64,000 nucleotides of DNA from Candidatus Nealsonbacteria bacterium (GCA_016188865.1 JACPGX010000001.1:141197-205196); one strand, 5' to 3'. Positions 29,868-56,869 are shown, numbered from the stretch's first letter. Translations and numbers: made by a program. Notes: generated by a model from the sequence alone, not told the origin.

Positions 29868-29875
29868 CTTATTTT

Positions 29876-36597: not shown

Positions 36598-36629
36598 AGA
36601 AATTGAATGTCTTTAATGGCGTTCGCTAG

Positions 36630-37631: not shown

Positions 37632-37647
37632 GGTTTTATGATATCCG

Positions 37648-37702
37648 ACTTAGGACTTAGGAACTTAGTTTCTAAGTAAACTTAGAAACTAAGTTCCTAA
37701 GT
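37648..37702. repeat. 48-bp perfect palindrome (22-bp arms, 4-nt loop) preceded by an extra ACTTAGG unit
   Basis: ACTTAGGAACTTAGTTTCTAAG-TAAA-CTTAGAAACTAAGTTCCTAAGT at 37655-37702, with an extra ACTTAGG at 37648-37654. It covers the stop codon of 37697-38689. Confidence 0.9.
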
Positions 37703-43146: not shown

Positions 43147-44098
43147 TAATTCTCTTGAGGCTTTCTTCTAACGAAATTTTCGGCTCGTAACCTATAAATT
43201 TTTGGATCTTTGAAAGATCGGGTTTTCTGCGGGCCATATCGTCAAAATCCTCGCCGTAAACTTTGGCGTAAGGAATAAAAGCAATGCTTGATTTGCTGTT
43301 TGCCAATTTTTTGATTTTTTGGGCTAATTCTTTTATCGAAATTTCCTCGTCAGAACCCAAATTAAAAATATGGCCTATCGCTTTGGGGTTATCCGCAAGT
43401 TTAATTAAGGCATCTACCACATCGTCGATATAGCCGAAGCACCTCGTCTGGTAGCCGTCTCCGTAAATGGTTATTGGTCTCCCGGCTAAAGCTTGCTGCA
43501 CGAATCTGGGAATGACCATACCATACACTCCTGTTTGCCTGGGACCTATTACATTGAAAAGTCTGACGGTGATGGCGGGAAGCCCTTTTTCTCTGTAATA
43601 AGCTAAAGCTAAAAATTCATCTGCTCCTTTGGACATGGCATACCCCCAGCGATTATGATAAGCAGAACCGTAAACCCTATCTGATTCTTCGGTAAAGGGC
43701 AACTTATCGTTTTTCCCGTAAATTTCAGAGGTAGAAGCAACAAGAACCGGAACTTTATATTGTAACGCAGCGTTTAGAACAATTTCCGTCCCCCTGATAT
43801 TTAAAAGAAACGAATCTAACGGCTTATCGATAATTGTTTTCACGCCAACGGCAGCGGCTAAGTGATAAATCTGATTAACTTTTTTTGCTAATTTTTCTAT
43901 TTTTTGGCTATCAAGAATTGTGCCTTTTATAAAATGAAAATTTTTGTTTTTCTTTAAATGCGCGATGTTTTTTAAGCTGCCGGTTGATAAATCGTCAATT
44001 ACAAAAACCTCTTCGCCTGATTTGAGAAGTTTTTCTACAAGATGAGAGCCGATAAACCCCGCGCCACCCGTGACTAATGTTTTATTGGTTTTTGTCAT
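43112..44098 (-). CDS. NAD-dependent sugar epimerase/dehydratase (extended SDR)
   Basis: TLVTGGAGFIGSHLVEKL and YAMSKGADEFLALAYY. Confidence 0.8.
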   Translation of the reverse strand: MTKTNKTLVTGGAGFIGSHLVEKLLKSGEEVFVIDDLSTGSLKNIAHLKKNKNFHFIKGTILDSQKIEKLAKKVNQIYHLAAAVGVKTIIDKPLDSFLLNIRGTEIVLNAALQYKVPVLVASTSEIYGKNDKLPFTEESDRVYGSAYHNRWGYAMSKGADEFLALAYYREKGLPAITVRLFNVIGPRQTGVYGMVIPRFVQQALAGRPITIYGDGYQTRCFGYIDDVVDALIKLADNPKAIGHIFNLGSDEEISIKELAQKIKKLANSKSSIAFIPYAKVYGEDFDDMARRKPDLSKIQKFIGYEPKISLEESLKRIIDYYGKKQDAR

Positions 44099-44997
44099 TT
44101 TTCTGATTCTAGCAATCTTTTAATGCCTTCTTCTAGGGCTATTTCCGGTTGCCAGCCAAGCAATTCTCTGGCTTTGGCAATATCAGCTAAAGTATCGCGC
44201 ATTTCTCCCACGGGCAGGGGAATATATTTTTTCTCTCCACCAATAAGATTGGCTATTTCATTCATGCTGTGATTGTGACCCCCTCCGACATTAATTACCT
44301 CTCCCTTGCCAGTTTTCTCTGATTCCATGGCTAAAATATTCGCTCGTGCCACATCGTAAACATTGGTAAAATCACGAGTTTGCTCGCCATCGCCGCTGAT
44401 AGTCAATGGTTTCCCTTCTTTTTTTTGTGTTAAAAAAATCCCGATTACCGGAGTGTAGGCTCCCTCCCTTGGCTGGCGTAGCCCGTAAACATTAAAGTAT
44501 CTCAAAGAAACAGTTTTGAGTCCATAAATATCAAAGAAAATTTTACAGTAAAGCTCGCCAACATATTTTTGCAAAGCATAGGGATTTAAGGGAGAACATG
44601 GCATATCCTCACGCATGGGAAGCGATGCTTGATGGCCGTAAGCCGAAGAAGATGCGGCGTAAATAAATTTTTTGACTCCGGCCTCTTTTGAGGCAATCAA
44701 AGCATTGAGTGTTCCACCGATATTTACATCATTGGTTTCTTTTGGCTTAGCAATCGACAAAGGAATTCTCGGCAAGGCCGCCTCGTGAAAAACAAAGTCA
44801 GCTCCTTCAAAAATTGGACGGATTCTTTCAAAATTACGCAAATCTTCTTTAAAAAACTTAACTCGTGTGTTAAGATTTTCTTTTTTGCCTGTGCTTAAAT
44901 TATCAATAACAAAAACTTCGTGCTCCTTTTTAATAAGGGCGTCTATTATGTGAGAACCAATAAATCCGGCGCCGCCGGTAACGATTATTTTTGGCAT
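44095..44997 (-). CDS. NAD-dependent nucleotide-sugar 4-epimerase-like SDR
   Basis: IIVTGGAGFIGSHIIDAL and YALQKYVGELYCKIF. Confidence 0.8.
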   Translation of the reverse strand: MPKIIVTGGAGFIGSHIIDALIKKEHEVFVIDNLSTGKKENLNTRVKFFKEDLRNFERIRPIFEGADFVFHEAALPRIPLSIAKPKETNDVNIGGTLNALIASKEAGVKKFIYAASSSAYGHQASLPMREDMPCSPLNPYALQKYVGELYCKIFFDIYGLKTVSLRYFNVYGLRQPREGAYTPVIGIFLTQKKEGKPLTISGDGEQTRDFTNVYDVARANILAMESEKTGKGEVINVGGGHNHSMNEIANLIGGEKKYIPLPVGEMRDTLADIAKARELLGWQPEIALEEGIKRLLESEK

Positions 44998-44999
44998 AA

Positions 45000-45836
45000 T
45001 TAAAATGTTTTTCTCACGCCGTATTTTTCGGGGTCGTCAATGTTCTGCTGCTTCATCAATTCGGCATTAATAGACTCGGCGGCTTTGTGAAGCTTGAGGT
45101 CAACGCCTTTTACGTCTGCCAGCTGAATAAAAGCCTTAATGTCTTTCGGCAGGCATTTCCCCCCATATCCCCTGTAGCCTTTGTGAAAAACATTAAGATG
45201 AGTTCGGCCGATTCTTTTATCGGCAGCTGCAGCCTCCACCATTCTATCGTAGTCTGCTCCCAAGGCCTGGCAAACATCATACATCTGATTGGCGAAGCTA
45301 ACCTTAATTGAAAACCAGGTATTGCCAAAATACTTTACCAATTCCGCTTCGGTGGCGGGTACGATTCTTTCGAAAGGAGCTAAGGGTAATAATTGCATTA
45401 AATCGCCGGCCACATCGTGGCTTTTTTCTGTATAACCCACAATCTGACGGTCGGGATACATCATATCCTGATCAGCGGTTTCTTCGGTTAAAAATTCGGG
45501 ATTCATTAAAAGCTTATGCTGGTGATATTTTTTCTGGAGCATTTCAGTGGTACCCGGCAAAACTGTTGATTTAATAACAACTACTTTCTCGCCCGAAAGC
45601 CAAGAAAGAGTTTCTTCAACATAAGACAAATCAAAACCGGTGCCATCTTTTAAGTAGGGAGTTGGCACGCAAATAAAAACGACTTCGGCTTTATTCACTT
45701 CTTCCGGCGAACCCAAATTCTGTCCCTTATCATACACAAAAAGCCCAAGGCCCTCCTTTTTCTCGCAGTATCTCTTCATCGCTCCTCCCACCATCCCAAC
45801 TCCTACAACGCCTACTTTGGTAAATCTTTTATACAT
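45000..45836 (-). CDS. Short UDP-glucose/GDP-mannose dehydrogenase-family protein (lacks the usual C-terminal nucleotide-sugar-binding domain)
   Basis: VGVVGVGMVGGAM Rossmann motif and the catalytic-Cys motif GGKCLPKD. It is only 278 aa, whereas this family is usually about 390-450 aa. Confidence 0.65.
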   Translation of the reverse strand: MYKRFTKVGVVGVGMVGGAMKRYCEKKEGLGLFVYDKGQNLGSPEEVNKAEVVFICVPTPYLKDGTGFDLSYVEETLSWLSGEKVVVIKSTVLPGTTEMLQKKYHQHKLLMNPEFLTEETADQDMMYPDRQIVGYTEKSHDVAGDLMQLLPLAPFERIVPATEAELVKYFGNTWFSIKVSFANQMYDVCQALGADYDRMVEAAAADKRIGRTHLNVFHKGYRGYGGKCLPKDIKAFIQLADVKGVDLKLHKAAESINAELMKQQNIDDPEKYGVRKTF

Positions 45837-45847
45837 ACCTATAATTT

Positions 45848-45876
45848 ATTATTAGGCAACCCAAAAAATAAGTCAA
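45848..45876 (-). promoter_or_regulatory. Promoter candidate, TTGACT-17-AATAAT
   Basis: It lies directly after the terminator at 45884-45917 and upstream of the dehydrogenase-family gene. Confidence 0.4.
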
Positions 45877-45883
45877 CCCCAAT

Positions 45884-45917
45884 AAAAAAGCCCGAGGCGT
45901 TAGCCTAGGGCTTTTTT
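45884..45917 (-). terminator. Rho-independent terminator with bidirectional shape (A6 and T6 flanks)
   Basis: AAAAAAGCCC-T-AGGC-TAAC-GCCT-C-GGGCTTTTTT. It includes the stop codon of the YdcF-like gene. Confidence 0.6.
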
Positions 45918-46526
45918 GATTAGTTGTTCTTGCTCTTCTTTGGGCAAGGACATAAGTTTTTGAAAAACAGGATAAAGCCTGCTGGGAGACTCGACTACAA
46001 CTGGCCATTTGCCTTTTTCTCCGTAAAGGATTTGGCTGGGCCATACCGAGAAATTGCCGAAATAAGATCTAAAATCTGTGATTTCAGAAAAAATATTCAT
46101 GGCATCTCTCATGCATCGCGAGGCGTGATCGGGACTGGAAACGGAAACAATCATTTCCATCCCGGCATCTTTGAAAATCCTAGTGGAGTATAGTATTTCC
46201 TCAAAAGTATTTTTTGACCTAGTTTCCAAACGGGAAATCTCGGCGATTCTCTTTCGGAGTTTCTCTAAATCAATACCCAAAAAATCAGGCAATACCGCCA
46301 ATTCATCAACATATTCCAACAAATAATCTCTCATGATTTCGGCCTCGACTTTGCCGTCTTTGATGCTGGCTCCAGTGCCAAAAACTATTAACTCCGGTTT
46401 TATCAAAGAAACTACTCTTGCTCCCTGCGGCAGCCTTCCAATTAGCTCTGGGCTTTTCCGCCAGACTACCTCTTGCCAATTTGGCGAATTGACATTATAG
46501 CCATGAATCAAAACTCCCGTCTTCAA
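45900..46526 (-). CDS. DUF218/YdcF-like protein
   Basis: The VSVSSPDHASRC region resembles YdcF/ElyC-family proteins. TTG start at 46526 is preceded by AAAGGAGGTAAAAA (SD 7 nt upstream). Confidence 0.45.
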   Translation of the reverse strand: MKTGVLIHGYNVNSPNWQEVVWRKSPELIGRLPQGARVVSLIKPELIVFGTGASIKDGKVEAEIMRDYLLEYVDELAVLPDFLGIDLEKLRKRIAEISRLETRSKNTFEEILYSTRIFKDAGMEMIVSVSSPDHASRCMRDAMNIFSEITDFRSYFGNFSVWPSQILYGEKGKWPVVVESPSRLYPVFQKLMSLPKEEQEQLIKKALG

Positions 46527-46570
46527 TTTTTACCTCCTTTGCTATATACTAGAACTGCATATCAAATTTT

Positions 46571-47713
46571 ATGGAAACTGTCAATACCGCAAAACGCAAA
46601 ATACTCTTTCTGGTCACCCAATCTGAAATGGGCGGCGCGCAGAGGTATATTTATGAAGTATCAAAAATACTGTCAGAAAGACACGAGATTTTGGTTGCGG
46701 CCGGAGAGGGAGATGGAGAGTTCTTCCAGAAACTAAAAAATACACCGGTTGAACCGGTGTATCTGAAACATCTGCAAAGAACTCCTGAACCGCATTCAAT
46801 TATCATGGCTATCGTTGAAATAATAAAACTTCTCAAGGCAGAAAGGCCGGATGTTTTGTTTTTGTGTTCTACTACTGCTGGGCTACTCGGCTCCATTGCC
46901 GCCCGAATTTACAGAGGTCCGACCTCTCGTCAGATTTGTCGGGAGGTCGGACCTCGCGTAATCTATCGTATTGGCGGCTGGGCCTTCAACGACCCTCGCC
47001 CATTCTGGAAAAATTGGCTTATCCTGCTGGCGGAGAAATTAACCGCCCGATTTAAAGATATAATCGTAGTGAACTCCGAATATGACCTGCGGATTGCGTT
47101 AGAAAAACGAATCGTTTCTCCGGAAAAAATAGTGAAAATCTATAATGGGCTTGATCGAAATTCTTTGAATTTCTTGCCCAAAGACGAAGCCCGTGGTCTG
47201 TTGACATCCGATGTCAACAGACGAATGATTGGGTGCGTGGCGAATTTTTATAAGACTAAAGGGCTAAAGTGCCTTATTGACGCTTTCGATTTTCTGATGT
47301 CCGGCTTCCCGAAGAAGTCGGACATCAAGCTATTCGTCATCGGCGATGGGAAACTGCGGTCGGAACTTGAAGCTCAAATAAAAAAACTCGACTTAGAAGA
47401 CAGGGTGATTTTAGCCGGCAGAATGCCCGACGCCTATAAATATCTAAAGGCATTTGATGTCTTCGTGCTTCCCTCTCTTAAGGAGGGTTTTCCATGGGTC
47501 ATACTGGAAGCTGCGGTAGCTGACGTTCCGATTGTCGCCACAAAAGTAGGAGCCATACCAGAAATATTGCCGGAAGAATTTTTAGTAAAACCAGGCGATG
47601 CCCAAGCTTTGGCAAAAAAAATTGGCTGGATGCTTGAACATCCAGCCGTACCAAAACTCAAGCAGAACTTCTCTCTGCAAAAAATGGCAGAGGAAACCGA
47701 GAGGCTACTCTAA
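46571..47713 (+). CDS. Glycosyltransferase, GT4-like (only plus-strand gene) carrying in-frame palindromic elements
   Basis: SEMGGAQRYIYEV and EGFPWVILEAAVADVPIVATKVGAIPEIL. RGPTSRQICREVGPRV is encoded by the repeat at 46913-46955. Confidence 0.8.
   Translation: METVNTAKRKILFLVTQSEMGGAQRYIYEVSKILSERHEILVAAGEGDGEFFQKLKNTPVEPVYLKHLQRTPEPHSIIMAIVEIIKLLKAERPDVLFLCSTTAGLLGSIAARIYRGPTSRQICREVGPRVIYRIGGWAFNDPRPFWKNWLILLAEKLTARFKDIIVVNSEYDLRIALEKRIVSPEKIVKIYNGLDRNSLNFLPKDEARGLLTSDVNRRMIGCVANFYKTKGLKCLIDAFDFLMSGFPKKSDIKLFVIGDGKLRSELEAQIKKLDLEDRVILAGRMPDAYKYLKAFDVFVLPSLKEGFPWVILEAAVADVPIVATKVGAIPEILPEEFLVKPGDAQALAKKIGWMLEHPAVPKLKQNFSLQKMAEETERLL
46913..46955. repeat. 42/43-nt nested double-hairpin element (type A), copy 2, inside a GT4 gene
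   Basis: AGAGGTCCGACCTCT-CGTCAGATTTGTC-GGGAGGTCGGACCTC. Confidence 0.9.
47297..47325. repeat. 29-nt imperfect palindrome (type C) inside the plus-strand GT4 gene
   Basis: ATGTCCGGCTTC-CCGAA-GAAGTCGGACAT. Translated as MSGFPKKSDI. Contains GTCGGAC. Confidence 0.55.
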
Positions 47714-47717: not shown

Positions 47718-49247
47718 TTACTTCCCTAAGAGAGAGTTTAATTTTGCGCGGGTGGCGGAACCAATCAGGCCGGTTCCTTTGGTAAGACCCGAGGGAGTTA
47801 GAATATCTGAAGCATACTTTTCCTGAAATTTAATCACAGCAGTTTTAGTCAGAGGACCAAACATGCCGGTATCTAATCCTTCTGATAAAAGTCCCTGACT
47901 AATCAAAATAATCTGTAAATATTTAACTGCACTGCTAGAATGACCCTGCTTAAGAGTGCCGGTAAAAGCAAAGTCAGATGGTACCCCGGCAATACCTTCT
48001 GCGGCAGTTAATTCAGTTAATTGGACCCGCAATTGCTGAACTGCGGCCAATATCTCTATAATTTTGGCCTCCAATTCTGCTTTAGTCATTTGAGAAATTG
48101 GTTTTTCCGCTGGAATGGCCGGCGTTGCGGGAGTCGCAGGAGTTGCAGGAGTTGCTGGAACTGCGGGAGTTACTGGCGTTGCCGGCGTTGCCGGTATCGC
48201 TGGCACTGCTGGAACCGCCGTAGTTGCAGACGCCGGCGCCTCGGTTTTTAAAGTAATGGTGTCGGAAACAGCAGCCGAATTTATTCCGTCAGCGCTGACA
48301 AATTTAGCATAAACTGTTTTTACTTCGTCACCCTCGGTTAATGTCCAAGTTTTGGTTGCTGCATAATTTTCCAAAGAACAATTAAGGAAATCTGAACGGT
48401 TGCAAATAGTCATCAAACTGGCGTCTCCTGCTTTTAAAGCAAGGGTAACTGCCCTGGTATTAACAACGGCAGCTCCCGCATTGATAACCAAAGAATCAGA
48501 ATAGGTGGTTGGCGCTACCCTGTTTACTCCGCCCGCTATAGCGGCTGTGGTAGCGGCTTTGATGGTGGCATAACTTGCGCTTGTCGTGGATAGGTTAGCG
48601 ACAGTGGTAGAAGCCCATAAACTGAAATAGTAAGTATGCTCCTTAGGCAAATTATTAAAAGTTATAAATGCCACAGAAGGAAGATCTCCCCATGAACCGC
48701 TTGAAGTCGCAGTGGGATAATCAGTGCCGTCATTGTATCTAATCGCGGTTTTTATAGATCCGGTGCCTGCTGTCCATATTATTTTTATACTATCTTCCGT
48801 GCTTTTTGACGATAAACTGGTTGGCGTATCTACGCCAGTCAAAAATGTCAGCTCACTGCCATACTTTAAGTCTAGGCTGACTGCGCCATCCCCACTTGCG
48901 GAAGTGGAAGAAGCGGCGTAAGCCCTAAAATAATAGACTGTGCCGGCAGACAAACTGGTGGTTGCATGGCTAAAATTTCCGTCTCCTGAAAAAGCTCCGC
49001 TTTCCGTAGAACTCCCCATGTTGTAATTTCCTGCGCTGGCACTAGCCGTACCTAAATTAAAACCCCTTATATCATATTTTTCGGTGGCTCCGGAGATATC
49101 TATTGTTCCGCTCAAAGTAACTGAAGTAAGGCCGGTTGAGGCAGCATTAGAAGTGACACTAGTGATGGCAGCCAAAGAAACCGCTGGGGAAATTAAAAAA
49201 AACCCCCCGATAAATAATAAAGAAAGTATTAAAAAACTATTCCGCAT
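47718..49247 (-). CDS. Secreted surface protein: FN3-like repeats, Pro/Ala/Thr linker, coiled coil, C-terminal peptidoglycan-binding (PG_binding_1-like) domain
   Basis: Signal/anchor MRNSFLILSLLFIGGFFLISPAVSLA, then PATPATPVTPAVPATPATPATPATPA. The C-terminus GHSSSAVKYLQIILISQG...FGPLTKTAVIKFQEKYA fits the PG-binding repeat pattern. Confidence 0.7.
   Translation of the reverse strand: MRNSFLILSLLFIGGFFLISPAVSLAAITSVTSNAASTGLTSVTLSGTIDISGATEKYDIRGFNLGTASASAGNYNMGSSTESGAFSGDGNFSHATTSLSAGTVYYFRAYAASSTSASGDGAVSLDLKYGSELTFLTGVDTPTSLSSKSTEDSIKIIWTAGTGSIKTAIRYNDGTDYPTATSSGSWGDLPSVAFITFNNLPKEHTYYFSLWASTTVANLSTTSASYATIKAATTAAIAGGVNRVAPTTYSDSLVINAGAAVVNTRAVTLALKAGDASLMTICNRSDFLNCSLENYAATKTWTLTEGDEVKTVYAKFVSADGINSAAVSDTITLKTEAPASATTAVPAVPAIPATPATPVTPAVPATPATPATPATPAIPAEKPISQMTKAELEAKIIEILAAVQQLRVQLTELTAAEGIAGVPSDFAFTGTLKQGHSSSAVKYLQIILISQGLLSEGLDTGMFGPLTKTAVIKFQEKYASDILTPSGLTKGTGLIGSATRAKLNSLLGK
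48110..48240 (-). repeat. Coding low-complexity 9-nt-periodic tract (Pro-Ala-Thr linker)
   Basis: Repeated GGNGTTGCN units on the + strand also generate the spurious antisense GVAGVAG ORF at 48115-48312. Confidence 0.8.
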
Positions 49248-49259
49248 ATTTTTATTTAT

Positions 49260-49298
49260 CCCCCCACCTTTCAGAATACCCCACCGAAAGGTGGGAGG
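49260..49298 (-). repeat. Structured 5'-leader element with two mutually exclusive hairpins
   Basis: On the + strand, CCCCCCACCTTTC (49260-72) can pair with GAAAGGTGGGAGG (49286-98). Alternatively CCCACC (49280-85) pairs with GGTGGG (49290-95) through a 4-nt loop. Confidence 0.6.
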
Positions 49299-49335
49299 AT
49301 TTAATTAATTATTTTTAATTGCAATTGCTAAGTTT

Positions 49336-49362
49336 ATTGTACCATATGGGGGGGGCAGTCAA
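49336..49362 (-). promoter_or_regulatory. Promoter candidate, TTGACT-15-TACAAT, with extended -10 (TGG) and a C8 tract in the spacer
   Basis: The minus strand reads TTGACT G CCCCCCCC ATATGG TACAAT, about 90 nt upstream of the 509-aa surface protein ATG. Confidence 0.45.
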
Positions 49363-49414
49363 AAGAAAAGTTATCCACAGGCCTTCGCTAAAGCTATGGC
49401 CCGCAATGCACCCC

Positions 49415-50452
49415 TTAAAAACGCGATTCAAGCCAATTGGCAAAAGATTCGAATGCACTGAAAAGACTGGCTTGGGCTGCGGAAATTTGCTGCTGCAAAA
49501 GCTGAATTAATTGCGCAAGCAAATTAATGATTTTTTGCTGGAGTTCTTGAATTAAAGCCCGGAGTTCTTCTGGAGAAAGAGGACCACCGGTGCCGGTGGG
49601 AGCGGGTTCTTCTTCCTTTATTTGTTGAGGTTCGACCTCCTCGGGAGGTCGAACCTCTTCGATTTCGGGCAGTGGCAGAGTTTTAACGTCCGGGAAAACC
49701 GTTAAAGCAGAAACTAAATTTTGCCCTCGGTCGTTAAAAGCTTTTATCTGCCTTCCAGAATATTCCGTATCAGGCCTTAAGCCTGTTTCGTCAAGATAAG
49801 AAATGTTTGCTCCGCCCGAAGCTACCGTATTCAGATTCTCATCTAAAATTTTAAAGCCGAACTCATTATTGGATAAATCCGTAAAATGCCACCTGATTGT
49901 TGAAGTGGATATTGCCTCGCCTGACTTTGCCAAGGGAGAAACAGGAGCAGAAGGAGTGTCGCTTCCTGCCAGAATCATTCTTTCAAGGCCAATAATTTTT
50001 TTGTCAGTGGGACCCTTAAGACTGACGTCAGGAAAAACTGCTGAATTTATTTGTATTTCCGGTTTAATTGTTTTTCCAGTATAGGTAGTAGAAGCGATGT
50101 CTACGGTAATAAAAATCCTTTGCTTTGTAAAAGTTCCATTGAGAGTTGTGTCAAAAAAAGGAGAAAATGATTTCCTCAATTTTTCAGATTCATCGCCGTC
50201 CCAACCCGGCGAAACGCCGTCTTCATAAATTGAAAGCTGGGAAATATCATATTGCTGAACAGTTCCGGTGTTATCAATTTTTATTGAAGTTAAACCGGCG
50301 CCGGGAAGAGTCAAATCTAAAATCAAGAGGTTAGTAGTGCCAGCCGGCACAGCGTAAGTTGACTGCGGGTTGACTATAAAATCATTGGCTGTTGAAGCAA
50401 AAGAAAAACCAGGCGCTAAAACAAAAACTAAAACTAAAATAATTTTCCTCAT
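49415..50452 (-). CDS. Secreted protein with FN3-like domain and C-terminal coiled coil
   Basis: Signal peptide MRKIILVLVFVLAPGFSFAS. STIRWHFTDLSNNEFGFKILDENLN...TEYSGRQIKAFNDRG is FN3-like. The C-terminus is LRALIQELQQKIINLLAQLIQLLQQQI. Confidence 0.6.
   Translation of the reverse strand: MRKIILVLVFVLAPGFSFASTANDFIVNPQSTYAVPAGTTNLLILDLTLPGAGLTSIKIDNTGTVQQYDISQLSIYEDGVSPGWDGDESEKLRKSFSPFFDTTLNGTFTKQRIFITVDIASTTYTGKTIKPEIQINSAVFPDVSLKGPTDKKIIGLERMILAGSDTPSAPVSPLAKSGEAISTSTIRWHFTDLSNNEFGFKILDENLNTVASGGANISYLDETGLRPDTEYSGRQIKAFNDRGQNLVSALTVFPDVKTLPLPEIEEVRPPEEVEPQQIKEEEPAPTGTGGPLSPEELRALIQELQQKIINLLAQLIQLLQQQISAAQASLFSAFESFANWLESRF
49584..49599. repeat. 16-nt palindrome inside the 345-aa secreted protein gene
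   Basis: CCACCGG-TG-CCGGTGG, translated as PTGTGG. It lies 27 nt from the type B element. Confidence 0.6.
49627..49657. repeat. 31-nt perfect palindromic element (type B) inside the 345-aa secreted protein gene
   Basis: GAGGTTCGACCTCC-TCG-GGAGGTCGAACCTC (14-bp arms). Translated as EVRPPEEVEP. Confidence 0.85.
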
Positions 50453-50458
50453 TATTAA

Positions 50459-50467
50459 ATTATATCA
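50459..50467 (-). promoter_or_regulatory. Extended -10 promoter TGATATAAT, 6 nt from the ATG
   Basis: The minus strand reads GTTATGATATAAT-TTAATA-ATG, immediately after the terminator of the giant gene. Confidence 0.45.
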
Positions 50468-50469
50468 TA

Positions 50470-50496
50470 ACAAAAACGCCCCGAGAAGGGGCGTCT
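50470..50496 (-). terminator. Rho-independent terminator of the giant surface protein gene
   Basis: The minus strand reads ACGCCCC-TTCTC-GGGGCGT followed by TTTTTG. Confidence 0.65.
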
Positions 50497-50518
50497 TTGC
50501 GTTTCCACAAGGATGAAA

Positions 50519-53500
50519 CTATTTGCTCAAACTAAGCGTGGCTGTCGGGAAAGTAGCAATTTTGTACTCGTTACTCCAGTCGGTGCTGACGTAATTATGA
50601 GTAGCGCCAGAGCCAGATTGGTCTGACCAGACAAAGGTCGGAGCGGTAGAAGTGACATAGTTGTGAGCGTTCGGCGAAGCCATATCGGTGGAAGTAGCAA
50701 ATGAGGCAGCTGTGAAGAAGTTAACGGTAGAAGTAGCAGTAGCTCTCTTGGCAATCTTGGTAGAAATTGAGTCGCCGGCTTTTCCGCCGTACAAAATGTC
50801 TCCCCTTAACTCATAAGTCTTGGTTGCGCCAGCAGAAACAACTTGTTCTGTTTTTGCAACAAAGGCTACTCTGGCCCCTCCTGCGTAATAGTTGTAAACA
50901 CTAACACCTGCATCCGTTTGAACGTCAGTAGTCGTGCCGAGAATCTGATCGCCAGTGGCCACGTCGTAAACCTTGAGCGTGCTGCTGGATATCAATAGTT
51001 TGGCTACAGCGTTAAAGCTTCCTGAATCGCCCGGAGTAGTGGTGGTACCCATGTAAATACCAAAGGTAGTGGTAGCTCCACCAGCGCCGATGGTATAAGT
51101 ATCAGAACCAATCTGAACGGAACCAGACACATCAAAGATCACCTTTACCCAACCGATTGCGCCCTCTGGGCCAGCAGTCACTGTCCATCTATAGAGCGTC
51201 TTTTCGCCGGCAGAAAAAGTGGTGCTCGGCAGAGAAGACGCGGCTATTGTAGGTTTGGACTTATGAATAAGCTGCCAGTTGCCGCAAAGTTTCCCTGCAT
51301 CAGTAGTGCCGGAAGGATTAATTACAACTCCAGAGCTTACTCCTTTAACAGTGCTTGTCGCATAGCAAAGCGCAGGAGTGTCTCCGGTGGTAGCGCCCGC
51401 CTGATCAGCTGATTTTACTCCATAAAGATCTGCCTTAATGGTCAAGACCTTAGTGGTGTCTTTAGGAACTACCCAGAAAGAACCAGCTGAAAAATTAAAG
51501 GTGGTTGATGAGTTAGCTAGACCGTAGTTAACCAAAACCTGGTCTGTCCCCAATTGAGTAGTGCCATCCCACAAACTAACATTGACAAAATCAGAATCTG
51601 CAGTGGTGGTTCCGGTTCCAAATTTCCTTTCTATGACAATGGATTGTACGCTGATATCTTCTCTAGCGGCAGTAAAGTTGACTTTCGTAAAGACAACATC
51701 CTGCTTGATACTGCCAGTTGGACCAACAGTTACGATAGTTGAATCCGGAGTATCGGCTGCGCTAGTTATAGCTAAAGTACCAGAACTTTGTAAGGTAATA
51801 TAGCTTAGCGAGCTCTCGGTAGAAGTGGCAAAGTTAGCTGTGCCATGCACGCCGGTGATAGTAGTAGTCGGGGTTGTATTGGAAGAAAGACCGGTAAAGG
51901 TTACATCTCTTGTCCCATTCAATCCGCTCATGCCGGAAGCCAAATCAGAAGAGCTGGCAATACCAATAGCAACGATATCGCTCGCATTGCCGGTTGAAAG
52001 AAAATCACTTTTTACGGTAATCGTCTTCTGGGCTCCTTTGGTAATGGTAATGCCTTGCGCGTTCAAGAAGTCAGAAGCTGAAAAGGTAACGGTGGTAGCT
52101 GAAGTGGAATCCCAGCCTTTTACTGAAGTTAATCTGGTGGCTCCATCGTAAAGGGCGAAATTGGAGAAGTCTGCTTGGAATTCTGTTGCTGAAGGAGTAC
52201 CGCCTCCTTGAGAACCGGTTAATTTAATTCTGGTTATTCTGACATCTTCAGCTGAACCGGCCGTAAAGACCAAACCAACTACTGGAACCGCATCGGAGCC
52301 AATAATTATATTTTGGTCGCCGGGATTAGCTGCAGCAGAAACAGTTAAGGCACCCTGTCCAAAGGTCATGGTTTTGCCATAAACCGATGTAGCTGTTTCG
52401 GTAATGGTGGCAGTTGAAGCAGATCCTTGAGTGGTTATCTTGGTGGCATTAGTCACCTGAACGCTGCCGGTGCTCAAAGCTGTATTGCTGGGAATATCGG
52501 CCACCACTTTCAGGGTTATTGTTTCTGAAGCAGGTACTGTTAAATTAAAACTGAAAGAAGCGTTGGTAGTCGGAGAAGGGACAGTAGAACCCAACTGAGT
52601 GCCATCTAGCTTCAAAAGTTTGACATTGGTGTAATCTCCTGAAGCAGCGTTGGTGGGCGAAGACGCCGCATCGCCGCTATTCAGGTTTACTTCCAAAGAC
52701 GATACAAGCATATCTTCCCCAGAATCAGCCGTTAAATTGATTCTCATCATTTCAATGCCCGATGCTCCCTTAATAATGGTTTGAGCTGCCGGGGTATTGG
52801 CTGATAAAGCTAACGTTAAGGCTCCGCTGGCTGTAACCGTATGAAGGTTGCCATTACCGGAAGTCAAAACAATGTTAGTTGTGCTTTGGGTAATATCGTA
52901 CTTTGACTCTAAACCGTCAATCCAGATATCGCTATAAGTATCAATATCTAGATCAAGCGTGTTATTGGTCGTAGCGCCGCTCGGAACGTCAGCTTTAACT
53001 TGCAAAGTCTTGTTGCTTGACTTCGCTATATCAATGATGCCCGGGTCATCCCAGCCAATGGTGTTTGAACCAAAGGTTGCATATGAACCGATCAAAGATA
53101 CTGGGCCGCCTACCTGAGTAGTTCCGTCCCAAAGGGTGATATTGGAAATATCAGTAGCTGAACCGCTTCCATTACTGAGCTTAAGCCTTAGCTTAACCAA
53201 TCTTACGCCCTCTCTTGAACCAGCGGTAAACTTAAATGCCGAAATTAATCGGTTAGAAGTTCCCTTAACATAGTTCTGGGCAGCAGGATTGTAAGCTGCG
53301 TCAACATTAACGGTTAATGAACCCTGCCCAATAGTCATGGTGTTACCGGTTGATTTCTGATAGGCTTGGGTATCATTGTGAGAAGCTTCAATTTGCCCAC
53401 CTGAATTGGCGCCATAAGCAGTCACATCATTGAATTGAGTGATTTCAAAGATGACTGTTCGGTTTGTCCAGATTCCGGGAGCAATATCAGCGTAAGCGTA

Positions 53501-54796
53501 AACTGTCTTAGATTGGCTGGCTAAAAGTGCCAATGGGCTGGCTGATAAATCAAAAGTGGCCTGATTTTGAGCGTCCAAAGCAGTTACTGTTGCGCCAATC
53601 TGCGCGCCGGCATACTTCAACTTAATGTTGGAAATGTCGGTGGCGGCAGCTGAACCAGTATGAGTAATAGTAATTGAGTGGACATCAGTAGCTTCAGTTG
53701 AAGAAGCTTCAAAGGTAAAGCCAGCTATTTCCTGATCGACAGATCCTGATAAAATCGTAGCGGCAGCCGGAGAAGTTGAAGTGGCAACAAACAACTCGCC
53801 AACTGAAGTTCCTGCTATTGTTAAGGCTTTTCCGTTTATCGGGAAAACGCCCGTAGGAGCAACAGTGGAAGTAATGTCGCCCGCCGCTTCAATGCCTAAC
53901 TCTAAACCGTCGCCAACTGTGGCAACTCCTTTAGCCGCAATGCTCACTTTCACGGTCAAGTACTTGGTTTCTCCTGCTGGGATTATCCAGCTAAGGCCGG
54001 AAAAAGTGGCTTTGTGCGTGTTGGTGTTTAAAGCTTGCGATGAACCGAGTTGTTTTGCGCCATCATAAAGTTTGATGGCGGAAACATCGGCATCAGTCGA
54101 AACTCCGCCTCGCTTTATAATTATTTTGGAAACCGTGTAATCAGAAGCGCCAGCAGTGAATTGAATCTTAGTAGCAACACTATTGACTGCTCCCAAGGCT
54201 ATTTGTTTAGCCGCAGACGTGTCGGCAGCCAAAGAAACTGAAGCTACAGTTGAAACTGGCGTAGTCGGGGTTGTTGGTGTAGTTGGAGTTGTCGGGGTGG
54301 TTGGAGTTGTTGCTCCTAACATAGAGTTTAATTTAGCTCTTGTTCCCGAACCGACAAAACCAGTGCCCGAAGTTAAACCAATGGGCGTTAAAACATCAGA
54401 AGCGTATTTGTTCTGAAATTTGACAACTGCCGCTTTGGTTAAAGCGCCAAAGAAAGTGGTTTCACTTCCTTTAGAACCTACTCCCGAAGCAGCAATCTGC
54501 GTTGCAGAATCCGAGTTCAAAACAATCTGCAGATATTTCACTGCATTGCCTGAACTGCCCTGCTTCAAGTTGGCTGTAAAGCTGAAATCAGCCGGAACGC
54601 CTGTAATAGCGCCTCCAGCTGCTGGTGTTTCTACAGTAGCTAACTGGGACTGCAAAAGAGCCAATTGAGCCATTAGGGCGTCAATTTGCGTTTGCAATTC
54701 AGCAGCTGTCAAAGCAAAAGCAGAACCCGGAATCATCCAAGCAGCTACAGTCATAGTCGTCACAACCGCAATAATCTTTTTCTTTAAGTTATTCAT
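50519..54796 (-). CDS. Giant (1425 aa) surface protein: N-terminal anchor, coiled coil, PG-binding domain, (TTP)n linker, six tandem Ig-like modules and a distinct C-terminal domain
   Basis: MNNLKKKIIAVVTTMTVAAWMIPGSAFA; AELQTQIDALMAQLALLQSQL; GSSGNAVKYLQIVLNSD...FGALTKAAVVKFQNKYA; TTPTTPTTPTTPTTPTTP. There is a recurring motif of the form D(I/F)SN(I/F)xL(W/Y)DG(T/A)xQ(L/V)G. Confidence 0.75.
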   Translation of the reverse strand: MNNLKKKIIAVVTTMTVAAWMIPGSAFALTAAELQTQIDALMAQLALLQSQLATVETPAAGGAITGVPADFSFTANLKQGSSGNAVKYLQIVLNSDSATQIAASGVGSKGSETTFFGALTKAAVVKFQNKYASDVLTPIGLTSGTGFVGSGTRAKLNSMLGATTPTTPTTPTTPTTPTTPVSTVASVSLAADTSAAKQIALGAVNSVATKIQFTAGASDYTVSKIIIKRGGVSTDADVSAIKLYDGAKQLGSSQALNTNTHKATFSGLSWIIPAGETKYLTVKVSIAAKGVATVGDGLELGIEAAGDITSTVAPTGVFPINGKALTIAGTSVGELFVATSTSPAAATILSGSVDQEIAGFTFEASSTEATDVHSITITHTGSAAATDISNIKLKYAGAQIGATVTALDAQNQATFDLSASPLALLASQSKTVYAYADIAPGIWTNRTVIFEITQFNDVTAYGANSGGQIEASHNDTQAYQKSTGNTMTIGQGSLTVNVDAAYNPAAQNYVKGTSNRLISAFKFTAGSREGVRLVKLRLKLSNGSGSATDISNITLWDGTTQVGGPVSLIGSYATFGSNTIGWDDPGIIDIAKSSNKTLQVKADVPSGATTNNTLDLDIDTYSDIWIDGLESKYDITQSTTNIVLTSGNGNLHTVTASGALTLALSANTPAAQTIIKGASGIEMMRINLTADSGEDMLVSSLEVNLNSGDAASSPTNAASGDYTNVKLLKLDGTQLGSTVPSPTTNASFSFNLTVPASETITLKVVADIPSNTALSTGSVQVTNATKITTQGSASTATITETATSVYGKTMTFGQGALTVSAAANPGDQNIIIGSDAVPVVGLVFTAGSAEDVRITRIKLTGSQGGGTPSATEFQADFSNFALYDGATRLTSVKGWDSTSATTVTFSASDFLNAQGITITKGAQKTITVKSDFLSTGNASDIVAIGIASSSDLASGMSGLNGTRDVTFTGLSSNTTPTTTITGVHGTANFATSTESSLSYITLQSSGTLAITSAADTPDSTIVTVGPTGSIKQDVVFTKVNFTAAREDISVQSIVIERKFGTGTTTADSDFVNVSLWDGTTQLGTDQVLVNYGLANSSTTFNFSAGSFWVVPKDTTKVLTIKADLYGVKSADQAGATTGDTPALCYATSTVKGVSSGVVINPSGTTDAGKLCGNWQLIHKSKPTIAASSLPSTTFSAGEKTLYRWTVTAGPEGAIGWVKVIFDVSGSVQIGSDTYTIGAGGATTTFGIYMGTTTTPGDSGSFNAVAKLLISSSTLKVYDVATGDQILGTTTDVQTDAGVSVYNYYAGGARVAFVAKTEQVVSAGATKTYELRGDILYGGKAGDSISTKIAKRATATSTVNFFTAASFATSTDMASPNAHNYVTSTAPTFVWSDQSGSGATHNYVSTDWSNEYKIATFPTATLSLSK
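51400..54250 (-). repeat. Six divergent tandem protein modules (~110-140 aa each) inside the 1425-aa gene
   Basis: Module anchors: VSAIKLYDGAKQLGS, DISNIKLKYAGAQIGA, DISNITLWDGTTQVGG, YTNVKLLKLDGTQLGS, FSNFALYDGATRLTS, FVNVSLWDGTTQLGT. Each is preceded by an FTA(G/x)S..E motif and followed by a KT(L/I)xVKAD motif. Boundaries are approximate. Confidence 0.6.
54255..54312 (-). repeat. Coding 9-nt tandem repeat encoding (Thr-Thr-Pro)6
   Basis: GGNGTNGTN units on the + strand are translated on the minus strand as TTPTTPTTPTTPTTPTTP. Confidence 0.8.
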
Positions 54797-54964
54797 TTTT
54801 TGTTAATTTTTATTTTATTTTCGACTATTTATGGTGAATTTATTGAACCATTTTAATAATCGATTTAATTTAATTCTTATTTAATTTAATGATTATTTTT
54901 GGCCTCGTTTGTCGACCGGACCATCGCCTTTTGAATATCAATAATTATTAATTTGGGAGCTCCC

Positions 54965-54998
54965 CCCGCCTTCGTCCCGTTAAGCGGGACTACTGCGG
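54965..54998. repeat. GC-rich nested hairpin in the region upstream of the giant surface protein gene
   Basis: CCCGCCTTCG-TCCCG-TTAAG-CGGGA-CTACTGCGG. The inner stem is GTCCCG/CGGGAC. It shares CCCGCCTTCG with 17898-17927. Confidence 0.6.
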
Positions 54999-55011
54999 AC
55001 ACAAGCATATT

Positions 55012-55037
55012 CAAAAAGTGAGGTTAAAAACGACCTC
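55012..55037 (-). terminator. Weak terminator-like hairpin after the anti-sigma-like gene
   Basis: The minus strand reads GAGGTCGTTTTTAACCTC followed by ACTTTTTG. The stem is only 5 bp. The arms resemble the GAGGTCGAACCTC arm of the type B element. Confidence 0.3.
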
Positions 55038-55055
55038 TAAATTCAAAATTAATTA

Positions 55056-55751
55056 TTATTTATTTGATAAGAACCAAAGTTTTTCCAAAGCTAGAGTATA
55101 TGCGCCCGCTTCAAAAGATTCTTTGGCTTCTGCTAATAATTGCTGGCCTTGTTCGTCTAGGGTTCTATTCTCTAAATCGGCAATAAGATAGCCTGCTAAT
55201 TGTTTTTCCAATTTTTCTGTTTCACCGCCAATCTGTACGCCCAAAACGCTTTCCACTTTCTGTTTGTTTGCTTCCAATTTTTGAGTTTCTGCCACTAGTC
55301 CTTTGAGCGTTGCCGAATTCATTTGAGATAAGCCATCCAAGGCTCCTGTTATATTATCTTGAAATGCCTTAATGGTCGGAGACAAGCTTCTTACTTTATT
55401 GGCCTCGGCTATTCCATTTAGCTCTTCTAGGCGCTTGTTGGCTAATCTTAAATGAACTTCTGACTTTTCTCCTGTCAAAGAAAGGCCAATTTCCATGGTT
55501 TCGGTAACTTGCTTAACCGGAAAAAGAAAATCTCCCGGCACCGTATTGCTGGCAAAACCGAAGAGCCCGATTACAACCACAAGAGAAATTACTGGAGCAA
55601 ACGCCATCTTCCAATGAAATATGTTAGACACCGAGTACCCAACAATTTCTTCTTCTGGTAAAATCTGGCGTTTAGTCAAAAGCACCCAGTCTTTTCCGGG
55701 CTTGATTGCCTTAAGTTCTTTGAGTTGCTTTATGAGGTCTTTTTCCGTCAT
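55056..55751 (-). CDS. Single-pass membrane protein, anti-sigma-factor-like (DUF5667-like ectodomain)
   Basis: TM helix MAFAPVISLVVVIGLFGFA is followed by PGDFLFPVKQVTE and a helical ectodomain. It lies immediately downstream of the sigma factor gene. Confidence 0.5.
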   Translation of the reverse strand: MTEKDLIKQLKELKAIKPGKDWVLLTKRQILPEEEIVGYSVSNIFHWKMAFAPVISLVVVIGLFGFASNTVPGDFLFPVKQVTETMEIGLSLTGEKSEVHLRLANKRLEELNGIAEANKVRSLSPTIKAFQDNITGALDGLSQMNSATLKGLVAETQKLEANKQKVESVLGVQIGGETEKLEKQLAGYLIADLENRTLDEQGQQLLAEAKESFEAGAYTLALEKLWFLSNK

Positions 55752-55775: not shown

Positions 55776-56273
55776 CTATTTTATTACACCGCGAAGAGCG
55801 TTTATGGCGCGATGAATCTGTACCCTTACTGCTTCCTCTGACTTGCCGAGAATTTTAGCTATTTCCGGCGCTGATAGCTCATCTAAATAATACCAAATAA
55901 TTATCTCACGATAATCGTCGTTTAGGTTGGCCAAAGCCGCTTTCACGTTGTTGACATCTGATTTTAGCATTGATTTCTCTTCTAAACCCATACTGGAATC
56001 GATCAAGGGAAGAGCGTCGGTAGAAACCAACTGGGCTTGGCCTTTTTGTCGATAATGGTCGACAACTAAATTACGGGCTATTTGGTACAAAAAGGCTTGA
56101 AGATTCTTAATGTCGCATTTATTTTTTTTAAAGCTTTCCCAACCTCTGGTAAAGACCTCAGAAGTTAAATCTTCGGCTATTTCTTGCGAATTTACTTTTA
56201 AAAAAACAAAACGATAGATTTTTTCTATATATTTGTCGTAAATTTCGCCGAATTGTTTCTGTAATTGCGACAT
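55776..56273 (-). CDS. ECF-type sigma-70 family RNA polymerase sigma factor
   Basis: Region 2 is IYDKYIEKIYRFVFLKVNSQEIAEDLTSEVFTRGW. Region 4 is YREIIIWYYLDELSAPEIAKILGKSEEAVRVQIHRAINALR. Confidence 0.85.
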   Translation of the reverse strand: MSQLQKQFGEIYDKYIEKIYRFVFLKVNSQEIAEDLTSEVFTRGWESFKKNKCDIKNLQAFLYQIARNLVVDHYRQKGQAQLVSTDALPLIDSSMGLEEKSMLKSDVNNVKAALANLNDDYREIIIWYYLDELSAPEIAKILGKSEEAVRVQIHRAINALRGVIK

Positions 56274-56280: not shown

Positions 56281-56835
56281 TTAATGTGTCCCATTTTTAA
56301 CATAATATACTCCCCTGCCGGCGCCATTCCTTACCATTATGCCGGTTTGACAAAGCTTATCTAAATCTCGGAGAACGGTTCTCCGATTAATTTCTGGGAA
56401 AAGCCCAACCACATCGCCTATTCTAAATCGGCCGTTTCCGTTAATGTATGCAATAATTTTCTCCTGTCGCCCCGCCTTTGCCAAGGCTTCGGTAGGCAGA
56501 TAGTTATCCACAGTTTTTCCAGAGTCGTGTTGCCCAACATCCGATGTTTGACATAGCTGACTCAACTTATTATATTCTCTCCTTAGGACCTCAAAATTCC
56601 TCGAATCCACCCAATTATTCTGCTTGGCTAAATCAAAAAGCCCAAAAATCTCTGTAATCTTACGAGAACACATCTCGTCCTGACGAGAAATGTTCTCGTA
56701 AGATTCCACCATTATTCTATCAGCTAATTCTCTTATTTTAGAAGCCAAATCCTCTCCAACGGGAAAAAGAGCGGTCACTTTATAGACCGCTAAAGTCAAT
56801 TTTAGAAGATGTTCTTTGTCCAGATTTTGCCGCAT
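56281..56835 (-). CDS. Putative transcriptional regulator: N-terminal four-helix-bundle domain plus C-terminal winged HTH
   Basis: HLLKLTLAVYKVTALFP...IRELADRI is four-helix-bundle-like. INRRTVLRDLDKLCQTGIMVRNGAGRGVYY is a DeoR-like wHTH. Confidence 0.5.
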   Translation of the reverse strand: MRQNLDKEHLLKLTLAVYKVTALFPVGEDLASKIRELADRIMVESYENISRQDEMCSRKITEIFGLFDLAKQNNWVDSRNFEVLRREYNKLSQLCQTSDVGQHDSGKTVDNYLPTEALAKAGRQEKIIAYINGNGRFRIGDVVGLFPEINRRTVLRDLDKLCQTGIMVRNGAGRGVYYVKNGTH

Positions 56836-56841: not shown

Positions 56842-56869
56842 ATTTTATAATTGCGACATCATCTGTCAA
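56842..56869 (-). promoter_or_regulatory. Promoter candidate, TTGACA-16-TAAAAT, 6 nt from the ATG
   Basis: The minus strand reads CTTGACAGATGATGTCGCAATTATAAAATGGAGAAATG. It heads the regulator / sigma / anti-sigma-like operon. Confidence 0.45.

Follow-up and report, generated by a model that had tools for sequence, protein, structure and literature searches.

We analyzed a 64,000-nt stretch of DNA from a Candidatus (Ca.) Nealsonbacteria bacterium (GCA_016188865.1, JACPGX010000001.1:141197-205196), hereafter the window, in which three genes for putative surface proteins lie beside a large glycan locus. Gene A (50519..54796) is an open reading frame (ORF) of 1425 aa, gene B (49415..50452) one of 345 aa, and gene C (47718..49247) one of 509 aa. 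All three are on the minus strand, as are all of their features given below, and they lie where a preliminary description of this DNA placed them. We consider it probable that they form a surface-layer (S-layer), or surface-array, locus of a Patescibacteria bacterium, with A as the coat protein and B and C as accessory proteins. The wall-anchored, S-layer-like coat proposed in the preliminary description agrees with independent literature for the family of A, namely a preprint on an S-layer protein made of immunoglobulin (Ig)-like domains (bioRxiv 10.1101/2024.05.28.596244) and the expression of a positional equivalent of A in the work of Kuroda et al. 2024.

Architecture and family of protein A

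Protein A starts with a signal peptide (54713..54796; MNNLKKKIIAVVTTMTVAAWMIPGSAFA before LT), read by eye from its Lys-rich n-region, hydrophobic core, and AFA cleavage motif. Directly after it comes a putative anchor module (aa 29-161), described in the next section, and then a Pro/Thr linker, (TTP)6 (aa 162-185; 54242..54313), the composition of which is not conserved among homologues. The rest of the protein consists of an Ig-like body of seven tandem repeats, R1-R7 (aa 186-1350; 50747..54241), found by motif periodicity and repeat alignment, and a C-terminal tail (50522..50746). With motif periodicity and a hidden Markov model (HMM), we count about seven repeats of 150-190 aa each, which share the signature D-[IVF]-S-N-[IV]-x-L-[YW]-D-G; a BLASTP self-comparison of A at relaxed settings gave no off-diagonal repeat pair. 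An AlphaFold2 (AF2) model of aa 334-1425, based on 57 sequences, shows consecutive all-beta domains with a predicted local distance difference test (pLDDT) score of 88.6. The composition of A is S-layer-like (isoelectric point 5.0, 47% Thr+Ala+Ser+Gly, 2 Cys). No Pfam or NCBIfam family covers its body, and NCBIfam has no match on either A or B. Across A, B, and C, Pfam gave no SLH domain match at E<=0.1, and no catalytic domain was detected with Pfam or NCBIfam.

More than 425 homologues of A were found, the best of which are full length (~1350-1500 aa) with 100% coverage and 44-62% identity; those named at their source come mostly from Nealsonbacteria or other Patescibacteria. A species-level survey, in which one genome per species was scanned, yielded 80 loci with an A-like gene. 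The counts given below refer to 69 complete A-like ORFs, to 65 loci in which the upstream DNA covered 3 kb or more, to 55 loci for B- and C-like genes downstream, and to 51 loci for glycan genes. By length, the A-like ORFs of the 80 loci form two classes, one of about 1100-1200 and one of about 1350-1450 aa. Members of 1100-1200 aa share the architecture of A, and the module is carried by 65 of the 69 complete ORFs. Each retrieved locus has one A-like gene, which is conserved over its full length and sits in a genomic context that is fixed across hosts and habitats. Mean identity to 37 homologues falls from 0.59 at R2 to 0.45 at R7 and is lowest, at 0.36, in the tail. This gradient fits an exposed C-terminus, and the most variable end of A may face outward.

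A portable, putative wall-anchor module

Residues 29-161 of A and 387-508 of C are 56% identical over 133 columns (E 8e-37), and in the 64-kb window tblastn found only these two copies. As the preliminary description had it, the common module lies at opposite ends of the two proteins, N-terminal in A and C-terminal in C. Copy 1 (54314..54712) consists of an amphipathic helix of about three heptads and a peptidoglycan (PG)-binding domain, PG_binding_1, with an inserted loop. Copy 2 (C aa 387-509; 47721..48089), recognized by Pfam PG_binding_1 and by its homology to the A copy, runs to the end of the protein (...LNSLLGK-stop). The peptides that had been quoted from these proteins are all present: A contains AELQTQIDALMAQLALLQSQL, GVPADFSFT, and (TTP)x6; C contains AELEAKIIEILAAVQQLRVQL, GVPSDFAFT, and PATPATP; and AVKYLQI, GSGTRAKLNSMLG, and GSATRAKLNSLLG are there as well.

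The Pfam model PG_binding_1 (PF01471) matches C at aa 438-478 with 26.8 bits against a cut-off of 23 (E 6.1e-6). Among solved structures, the C module is also similar to the PG-binding domain of PDB 1LBU, a Zn D-Ala-D-Ala carboxypeptidase from Streptomyces albus (E 1.6e-4), and to 5TV7 (E 6.9e-3). In the AF2 model of C, a 26-residue helix (389-414) is followed by helices 439-450, 465-477, and 497-508, with pLDDT of about 90. The helix before the PG-binding domain is conserved, with the consensus ELQAQIxxLLAQLxxLQxQL, and is the distinctive feature of the module; it may serve to oligomerize the anchor.

A search with the module alone returned 81 homologues, many with a precomputed PF01471 match. 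Where their source was named at taxon level, all came from Patescibacteria save one metagenome-assembled genome (MAG) labelled Thermodesulfobacteriota. The proteins returned by this search were short (77-229 aa; many of the named ones flagged partial), and architectures were taken from full-length searches instead. Other Patescibacteria show both positions as well: the module is N-terminal in P0006, P0008, and P0047, and it is C-terminal in P0005 and P0015. In the search with C, the module was C-terminal on FN3, Pur_ac_phosph_N, beta-helix/NosD, cohesin, CARDB, ice-binding-like, SBP_bac_5, GDSL lipase, and SMP-30 bodies. The preliminary description had raised the concern that the module might be a generic domain of unrelated cytoplasmic proteins; the bodies we found are many and unrelated, but all are of extracellular type. 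Its presence on so many different exoprotein bodies suggests a portable wall-anchor cassette and, judged from sequence, the module is probably a portable and promiscuous cassette of this kind that Patescibacteria put on either end of an exoprotein.

The module resembles PG_binding_1 enzymes such as 1LBU in its sequence match to the helical PG-binding domain. Pfam describes PG_binding_1 as a domain found at either the N- or the C-terminus, and both placements are known for the family (Kuroda et al.). Unlike in these enzymes, the domain of the module is always preceded by the conserved amphipathic helix (ELQAQIxxLxAQLxxLQxQL), many module copies have an inserted loop, and the module would anchor non-enzymatic Ig/FN3 bodies rather than hydrolases.

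A separate group of module proteins was seen downstream of A-like genes in other loci. In L004, L017, L018, L027, L028, L030, L032, L040, and L061, the A-like gene is followed by a gene for a protein of ~560-620 aa that ends in the module. The one in L004 (14595-16331; 578 aa) contains an HExxH motif (HEFIH), which suggests that it may be a metalloprotease, and Pfam shows its PG_binding_1 part only. The window has no counterpart of this protein.

A probable regulatory cassette upstream

Three minus-strand genes lie upstream of A. The first encodes a DeoR-type helix-turn-helix (HTH) protein of 184 aa (56281..56835; HTH_DeoR E 4.2e-5), the second a sigma-70 factor of the extracytoplasmic function (ECF) type with 165 aa (55776..56273; Sigma70_r2 and r4_2), and the third an apparently single-pass membrane protein of 231 aa with the domain DUF5667 (55056..55751; Pfam PF18915, E 5.5e-11). 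A near-consensus promoter match, TTGACA-16-TAAAAT (56842..56869), is found at the HTH gene, behind a terminator-like hairpin. The sigma factor consists of regions 2 and 4 only and scores 93.7 bits against the cut-off of 42.9 for TIGR02937 (sigma70-ECF); at the subfamily level its best NCBIfam similarity is to a BldN-type model, below the cut-off. The DUF5667 gene begins 24 nt after the sigma gene, and a hydrophobic segment at aa ~48-70 of its product was read from the sequence. Pfam and NCBIfam gave DUF5667 only in this protein and no anti-sigma domain (zf-HC2, RskA, or other). From its position, we regard it as a candidate anti-sigma factor or envelope sensor.

This cassette is strongly conserved. 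Upstream of the A-like gene, a sigma gene is present in 64 of the 65 loci, an HTH gene in 62, and a DUF5667 gene in 59, and 58 of the 65 have all three in the same order. A search of the available literature for DUF5667 found no paper mentioning it. The supplement of the 2024 preprint, searched by keyword for a sigma cassette and for a leader RNA like the one described below, gave no relevant passage on either. The conserved HTH/ECF sigma/DUF5667 cassette and the structured leader RNA seem to be undescribed so far.

Synteny also extends beyond the S-layer locus. Homologues of two window ORFs, one of 894 aa (60544-63228) and one of 231 aa (59862-60557), lie upstream of the cassette in L001, L002, L041, L050, L062, L082, and L085. 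The versions in L001 and L002 carry Clp_N/AAA and Trypsin_2 domains and are thus ClpB-like and trypsin-like.

Relation to predicted and observed S-layers

In the 2024 preprint, the scan of a Nealsonbacteria genome led to a putative S-layer protein; its six Ig-like assembly domains form a left-handed spiral and resemble in this the S-layer protein of Haloferax volcanii, and AF2-multimer gave closed p6 lattices (bioRxiv 10.1101/2024.05.28.596244). The proteins listed there have 1131-1274 aa, with three-domain forms of about 640-730 aa, and include A0A1G2EN61 from Nealsonbacteria (1131 aa), GMX59286.1 from Parcubacteria (1185 aa), and the three-domain GMX57981.1 from Yanofskybacteria (692 aa). 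Using electron cryomicroscopy, Chen et al. observed Ca. Nealsonbacteria with an apparent S-layer and noted three genes for PG-binding proteins in the genome. Kuroda et al. 2024 found proteins with PG-binding domains among the five most highly expressed signal-peptide genes of unknown function that they examined. In their data for Ca. Yanofskyibacterium, PMX_810_sub_00350 (2079 nt, 692 aa) has an expression value of 16.7, and its length equals that of GMX57981.1. The genes before it on the same strand are 00351 (DUF5667, 12.5), 00352 (ECF sigma, 7.6), and 00353 (HTH DeoR, 10.4). The order from PMX_810_sub_00353 to 00350 is therefore the order seen in the window, HTH, ECF sigma, DUF5667, and signal-peptide protein, with the last gene the highest-expressed of the locus.

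Protein A is probably a longer member of the S-layer family already predicted in 2024. Like that family, A comes from Patescibacteria, has a signal peptide, an anchoring device, and serial Ig-like domains, and belongs to a very large, phylum-wide family. The 692-aa expressed member likewise stands in an HTH, ECF sigma, and DUF5667 context, and Kuroda et al. report that proteins of this kind have a PG-binding domain. The plan of an anchor, a spacer, and serial Ig-like lattice domains is also that of S-layer proteins with SLH domains or coiled-coil stalks (Bacillota SLH proteins, Bacteroides, and csg of Haloferax volcanii). In the Bacteroides proteins an N-terminal trimeric coiled coil precedes the Ig-like domains, and the Haloferax protein forms a six-Ig spiral (bioRxiv 10.1101/2024.05.28.596244). 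In contrast to these, A has PG_binding_1 as its anchor, not SLH, a lipid, or a transmembrane helix, and it has no detectable sequence relationship to them; a fold search against PDB gave only generic Ig matches.

A number of points weigh against taking A as the S-layer protein. The assignment of the family as an S-layer rests on AlphaFold-multimer lattices in an unreviewed preprint together with transcript abundance, and the only lattice constant measured in Patescibacteria (13 nm) fits the three-domain protein, not the six-domain one (bioRxiv 10.1101/2024.05.28.596244); the constant predicted for six domains is roughly 18.5 nm. At 1425 aa, with ~7 repeats, one above the six described, and a tail, A belongs to the 1350-1450-aa class and is longer than the modelled six-domain proteins of 1131-1274 aa. 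None of the preprint's accessions was among the clusters of ten A-family proteins, and the membership of A in the preprint's family therefore rests on architecture, taxonomy, family size, and synteny. Foldseek against PDB matched A to generic strings of Ig domains only, at 6-13% identity, and the top 50 PDB matches listed do not include the S-layer protein of Haloferax. At the anchor, the coiled coil has only ~3 heptads, and the Pfam PG_binding_1 model has no match at E<=0.1 on A's own module, probably because of the inserted loop NSDSATQIAASGVGSKGSETTFFG.

Kuroda et al. 2024 moreover take the highly expressed PG-binding-domain proteins to be host-attachment factors. On such an explanation, A, and possibly B and C, would be adhesins in which a PG anchor and an Ig-like stalk present a variable C-terminal tip for binding the host, as would suit an episymbiotic or parasitic lifestyle. 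The combination of an anchor, an Ig-like stalk, and a most variable distal end is also the architecture of fibrillar adhesins, the best PDB matches of A include Ig-like domains of the adhesin PrgB, and the central domain of B recurs in giant multi-repeat surface proteins. Host-specific adhesins usually vary in both number and architecture, whereas the A-like gene is single in each retrieved locus, in its fixed context and with its full length conserved; expression of the A family is among the very highest, and the preprint's models closed into p6 lattices. We therefore regard a purely adhesive function as unlikely, and we note that the two roles are not exclusive, as an S-layer can also mediate contact.

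Proteins B and C

Protein B has a signal peptide, an A-type Ig-like domain (aa ~22-157; 49982..50389), an FN3-like domain (aa ~165-250; 49703..49960), and, after a Pro/Glu linker, a coiled coil (aa ~293-330; 49463..49576) followed by an aromatic tail. It has no PG-binding domain. That B retains only a terminal coiled coil, as previously stated, is literally true, but the sequence support for tying this coiled coil to the module is marginal: BLASTP of B against the module gave E 0.04 and 0.024 over 22-27 residues of low-complexity, Gln/Leu-rich helix. We set this link aside on account of these marginal statistics, and homology between B and the repeats of A takes its place. The N-terminal domain of B matches the A repeat profile at E 1e-4, and when the family profiles of B and A were compared with hhalign, B 53-136 aligned with A 371-455 at a probability of 88.9% (E 2.4e-6). 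This homology implies that B holds one copy of the unit from which A is built, and the real relation of B to A, as far as sequence comparison tells, is this N-terminal domain and not the module. Full-length orthologues of B form about 10 clusters. Separately, giant proteins of 1500-6000 aa contain the central FN3-like domain of B (aa 165-250) as a tandem repeat, with as many as 23 copies.

Protein C consists of a signal peptide, three FN3/Ig-like beta-sandwich domains (48249..49160), a disordered PATP linker (48111..48230), and the C-terminal module. The sandwich domains were assigned from the AF2 model, which has an overall pLDDT of 81.3, and from FN3-like PDB matches; Foldseek against PDB returned generic Ig/FN3 strings only. 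NCBIfam gave a SleB match only, far under the cut-off. About 22 full-length orthologues of C were found, and two members of its family, P0222 and P0223, have the coiled-coil end without the PG-binding domain.

These data bear on whether the three proteins belong together at all. They might be unrelated wall-associated proteins that happen to use a common PG anchor within a general envelope island, without a joint structure or any link to the glycan genes. The promiscuity of the module, which is found on many unrelated bodies, is in keeping with this, and B and C are dispensable neighbors: downstream of A, 10 of the 55 loci have a B-like gene, 2 a C-like gene, and 19 a gene for another module-bearing protein. 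Glycan genes are missing from 21 of the 51 loci. Each of the genes A, B, and C also seems to have promoter- or terminator-like signals of its own. Immediately behind the stop codon of A, an intrinsic-terminator-like hairpin (50476..50494, minus strand) reads GACGCCCC-TTCTC-GGGGCG and then TTTTTG; the site listing gave this hairpin on the plus strand only, and its minus-strand form with the T-run was read from the sequence.

Set against this, B carries the domain homologous to the A repeat, and a B-like gene, if there is one, is found no more than 1.5 kb downstream of the A-like gene. L001, a MAG from Nealsonbacteria where identity is only 62% for A, 43% for B, and 46% for C, retains the order A-B-C. 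After A in L012 and L016 we found hybrids that combine a B-type body, a PATP-type linker, and a full module, and the module of the L016 hybrid is 74% identical to that of C. Such hybrids document shuffling within the locus, so that the term "shuffled module" used in the preliminary description is right. The repeat homology, the kept order, and the hybrids in the same slot suggest a functionally linked set, and we consider it very unlikely that the three proteins are unrelated.

A structured leader RNA precedes A

The spacer between the DUF5667 gene and A contains a leader RNA of 148 nt (54894..55041, minus strand), identified by a covariance model and covariation and belonging to type N of the types described here. 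The window leader has an outer stem P1, an inner stem Pb (CUUUUUGAAUAU / AUAUUCAAAAG), a GC-rich apical hairpin, and a near-invariant unpaired GGUCGA at 54912..54917. Across loci, GGTCGA is found in 61 of 73 DUF5667-to-A spacers, compared to 3.0 expected from shuffles.

In type U leaders, RNAalifold predicts a 9-bp hairpin with an invariant UACGUAA loop, in which 5 of 9 pairs show compensatory double changes among 8 sequences; a type U covariance model found 25 loci at E<0.01. In type N, the type of the window's clade, the 3′ strand of P1 directly follows GGUCGA and the inner stem is CUUUUUGRAU / AUYCAAAAG. Across 16 type N sequences, in an alignment assembled from hand-trimmed leaders, 88.7% of cells pair, compared to 81.1±1.0 in shuffles (0/500) and 39-52% with the partners slid, and there are 12 double-change pairs compared to 5.8 expected (0/500); these covariation controls ignore phylogeny. 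RNAalifold independently predicts the type N P1, with 6 of 7 pairs compensatory. The type N covariance model found 20 sources at E<0.01, four of them outside the seed, and its single match in the window is the leader itself (63.2 bits, E 3.6e-9). The 44 confident locus matches are without exception on the strand of the gene, and 18-311 nt separate their ends from the start codon of the A-like gene. P1 complementarity averages 5.74 bp within loci and 4.96 bp between them, and none of 5000 permutations reached the observed mean, with a small bias from picking the best 5′ box per locus. The leader belongs to no Rfam family that we could find: the window has no Rfam match at gathering scores, rRNA families included, and at permissive settings the best match in 54700..55150 had an E of 3.8. 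The whole 64-kb window likewise contains no tRNA genes.

Two other readings of this region were considered. The GGTCGA and UACGUAA boxes recall an ECF promoter (TTGAYA...CGTAA as -35/-10), but the sequence between them shows compensatory base-pair changes, and the spacing, judged by eye, is unlike that of known ECF promoters; we rejected this as the main explanation, though a promoter may overlap the element. The first hairpin of the window leader (GAGGU...ACCUC with a U-run) could be taken for a terminator, but this hairpin lacks conservation among related leaders. A third variant of the leader, seen in L050, L064, L083, and L084, has a long, near-perfect inner hairpin (GUCGUUUG / GGUCGACAAACGAC) and is matched by neither covariance model.

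In the window, as in 9 of 19 type N loci, no more than 14 nt separate the start of the leader from the stop codon of the DUF5667 gene, whereas at type U loci a GC hairpin and an AT-rich, -10-like sequence usually precede the leader. The close abutment of the type N leader to the upstream gene suggests processing of a polycistronic RNA. We hypothesize that the leader either stabilizes the A mRNA at its 5′ end or serves as a site of processing, either of which would explain the much higher transcript level at the A position (16.7 compared to 12.5 for the DUF5667 gene); a role in sensing is also conceivable.

Structured 5′ leaders stabilize the mRNAs of highly expressed envelope proteins such as ompA of E. 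coli and slpA of Lactobacillus. The A leader is like these in being long, structured, and placed before a surface-protein gene, here one with a very highly expressed positional equivalent, and the type U outer stem would sit at the extreme 5′ end of the mRNA. Unlike these leaders, to which it has no similarity in sequence or structure, the A leader is kept across much of a phylum and has the near-invariant unpaired GGUCGA.

The glycan island and the question of glycosylation

On the other side of the three genes, a glycan biosynthesis island of ~45 genes, assigned by Pfam, spans 1363..47713; a GT4 gene (46571..47713) is on the plus strand and the rest are on the minus strand. We scanned 21 ORFs, 20 on the minus strand and the GT4 gene, which is about half of those in the island. 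Glycan-type domains above the Pfam cut-offs (sugar-nucleotide, glycosyltransferase, aminotransferase, deacetylase, acetyl- or methyltransferase, or B12-radical-SAM) were present in 17 of the 21, bearing out the earlier identification of the neighboring ~46 kb as a glycan locus. Of the other four, two have sub-threshold matches (methyltransferase and PMT_2), another is a TIM barrel like that of xylose isomerase, and the last has no match. The domain content includes UDPG_MGDP_dh, epimerases/dehydratases, Polysacc_deac_1, FemAB/Acetyltransf_6, two DegT, and many GT4. Two further features of the island stand out: three B12-binding radical-SAM enzymes (4597-6075, 15541-16845, and 20385-21812), which suggest an unusual sugar modification such as C-methylation, and a 580-aa ORF (18010-19752) with no Pfam match at E<=1e-4.

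The proximal genes of the island are syntenic in L001, L002, and others, and comprise GT4, a UDP-sugar dehydrogenase-like gene, two epimerases/dehydratases, a deacetylase, a FemAB-like acetyltransferase, DegT, and further GT4. The proposed linkage between coat and glycan is thus real but partial, as 30 of the 51 loci have homologues of island genes downstream of A and no more than 8 kb away, and the other 21 have none there.

The preliminary description went further and took the Pro/Thr-rich linkers to be targets of O-glycosylation. Here the coat would be a glycoprotein S-layer, with the Thr-rich linkers of A and C carrying the island's glycan in O-linkage, on the pattern of the slg clusters of Geobacillus and Paenibacillus. 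Clusters of this kind lie beside S-layer genes in Geobacillus, Paenibacillus, and Tannerella and are an established precedent in Firmicutes. The present locus is similar in that a large glycan locus is directly beside the S-layer structural gene, with the linkage kept in many relatives. In L005, a membrane protein with Wzy_C and TPR, from a family that includes O-oligosaccharyltransferases, is encoded directly after the A-like gene, and the island contains a PMT_2-like (GT-C) membrane protein of 412 aa (24211..25449). This ORF coincides with a compositional outlier (24001-26000; GC 0.35, AT skew +0.27) and is the window's sole candidate for glycan transfer to protein or wall.

In the orthologues, however, EEVVEE-, PTPEP-, or Asp/Glu-rich spacers, acidic or Pro-rich, replace TTP and PATP. 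Given that the linkers are not conserved, the O-glycosylation idea is unsupported, and they look like generic flexible spacers when the sequences are compared. Unlike slg clusters, the window has no identified O-oligosaccharyltransferase (Wzy_C, PglL, or WsaB type) among the scanned island ORFs, and the PMT_2 match is below the Pfam cut-off. With no clear transferase among these ORFs, protein glycosylation is possible but unsupported. The island could equally make a wall polymer, a capsule, or a lipid-linked glycan, and such genes are not near A in every locus. We consider an O-glycosylated coat doubtful, and the island most likely makes a cell-envelope glycan, whether as protein decoration or as wall polymer.

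Discussion

Our preferred interpretation remains a wall-anchored S-layer locus, in which lattice formation, oligomeric state, orientation, what B and C do, the logic of the regulation, and any glycosylation are features that we infer. In this model, A would be exported through its Sec signal peptide and fixed to peptidoglycan by its N-terminal module. The short coiled coil could oligomerize several PG_binding_1 domains and so raise the avidity of the anchor. After the flexible (TTP)6 spacer, the ~7 Ig-like beta-domains would build the outer array. C would be a smaller surface protein of FN3 type on the same anchor cassette, placed at its C-terminus, and B would most plausibly be held in the coat by its A-type domain or by coiled-coil pairing with A or C. 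The HTH/ECF sigma/DUF5667 cassette and the structured 5′ leader may together organize the expression of A, with the leader stabilizing or processing the A mRNA such that A becomes far more abundant than its regulators.

A more specific version of this model is tentative, though in our view still possible. The S-layer gene would belong to a phylum-wide fixed unit of a DeoR-type HTH protein, an ECF sigma factor, a DUF5667 sensor, and a GGUCGA leader of type U or N; the leader would be a true cis-regulatory RNA, either responsive to a protein or ligand or acting as a processing site, that couples coat production to the status of the envelope; and B and C would join the array through a hetero-oligomeric coiled coil.

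Patescibacteria, which are also called the candidate phyla radiation (CPR), make up a large share of bacterial diversity and are almost all uncultured; their envelope mediates episymbiotic life, and its components are known from predictions only. The window provides a complete example of a locus with a long-form probable S-layer protein, a shared anchor cassette, two accessory proteins, and glycan genes. The combination of coiled coil and PG_binding_1 could be used as a simple sequence marker of the wall-attached exoproteome of Patescibacteria. The leader is a candidate new RNA family, and the HTH/ECF sigma/DUF5667 cassette would give DUF5667 its first functional context. Together, the cassette and the leader RNA offer handles on how a bacterium with a minimal genome may control its most abundant envelope protein.

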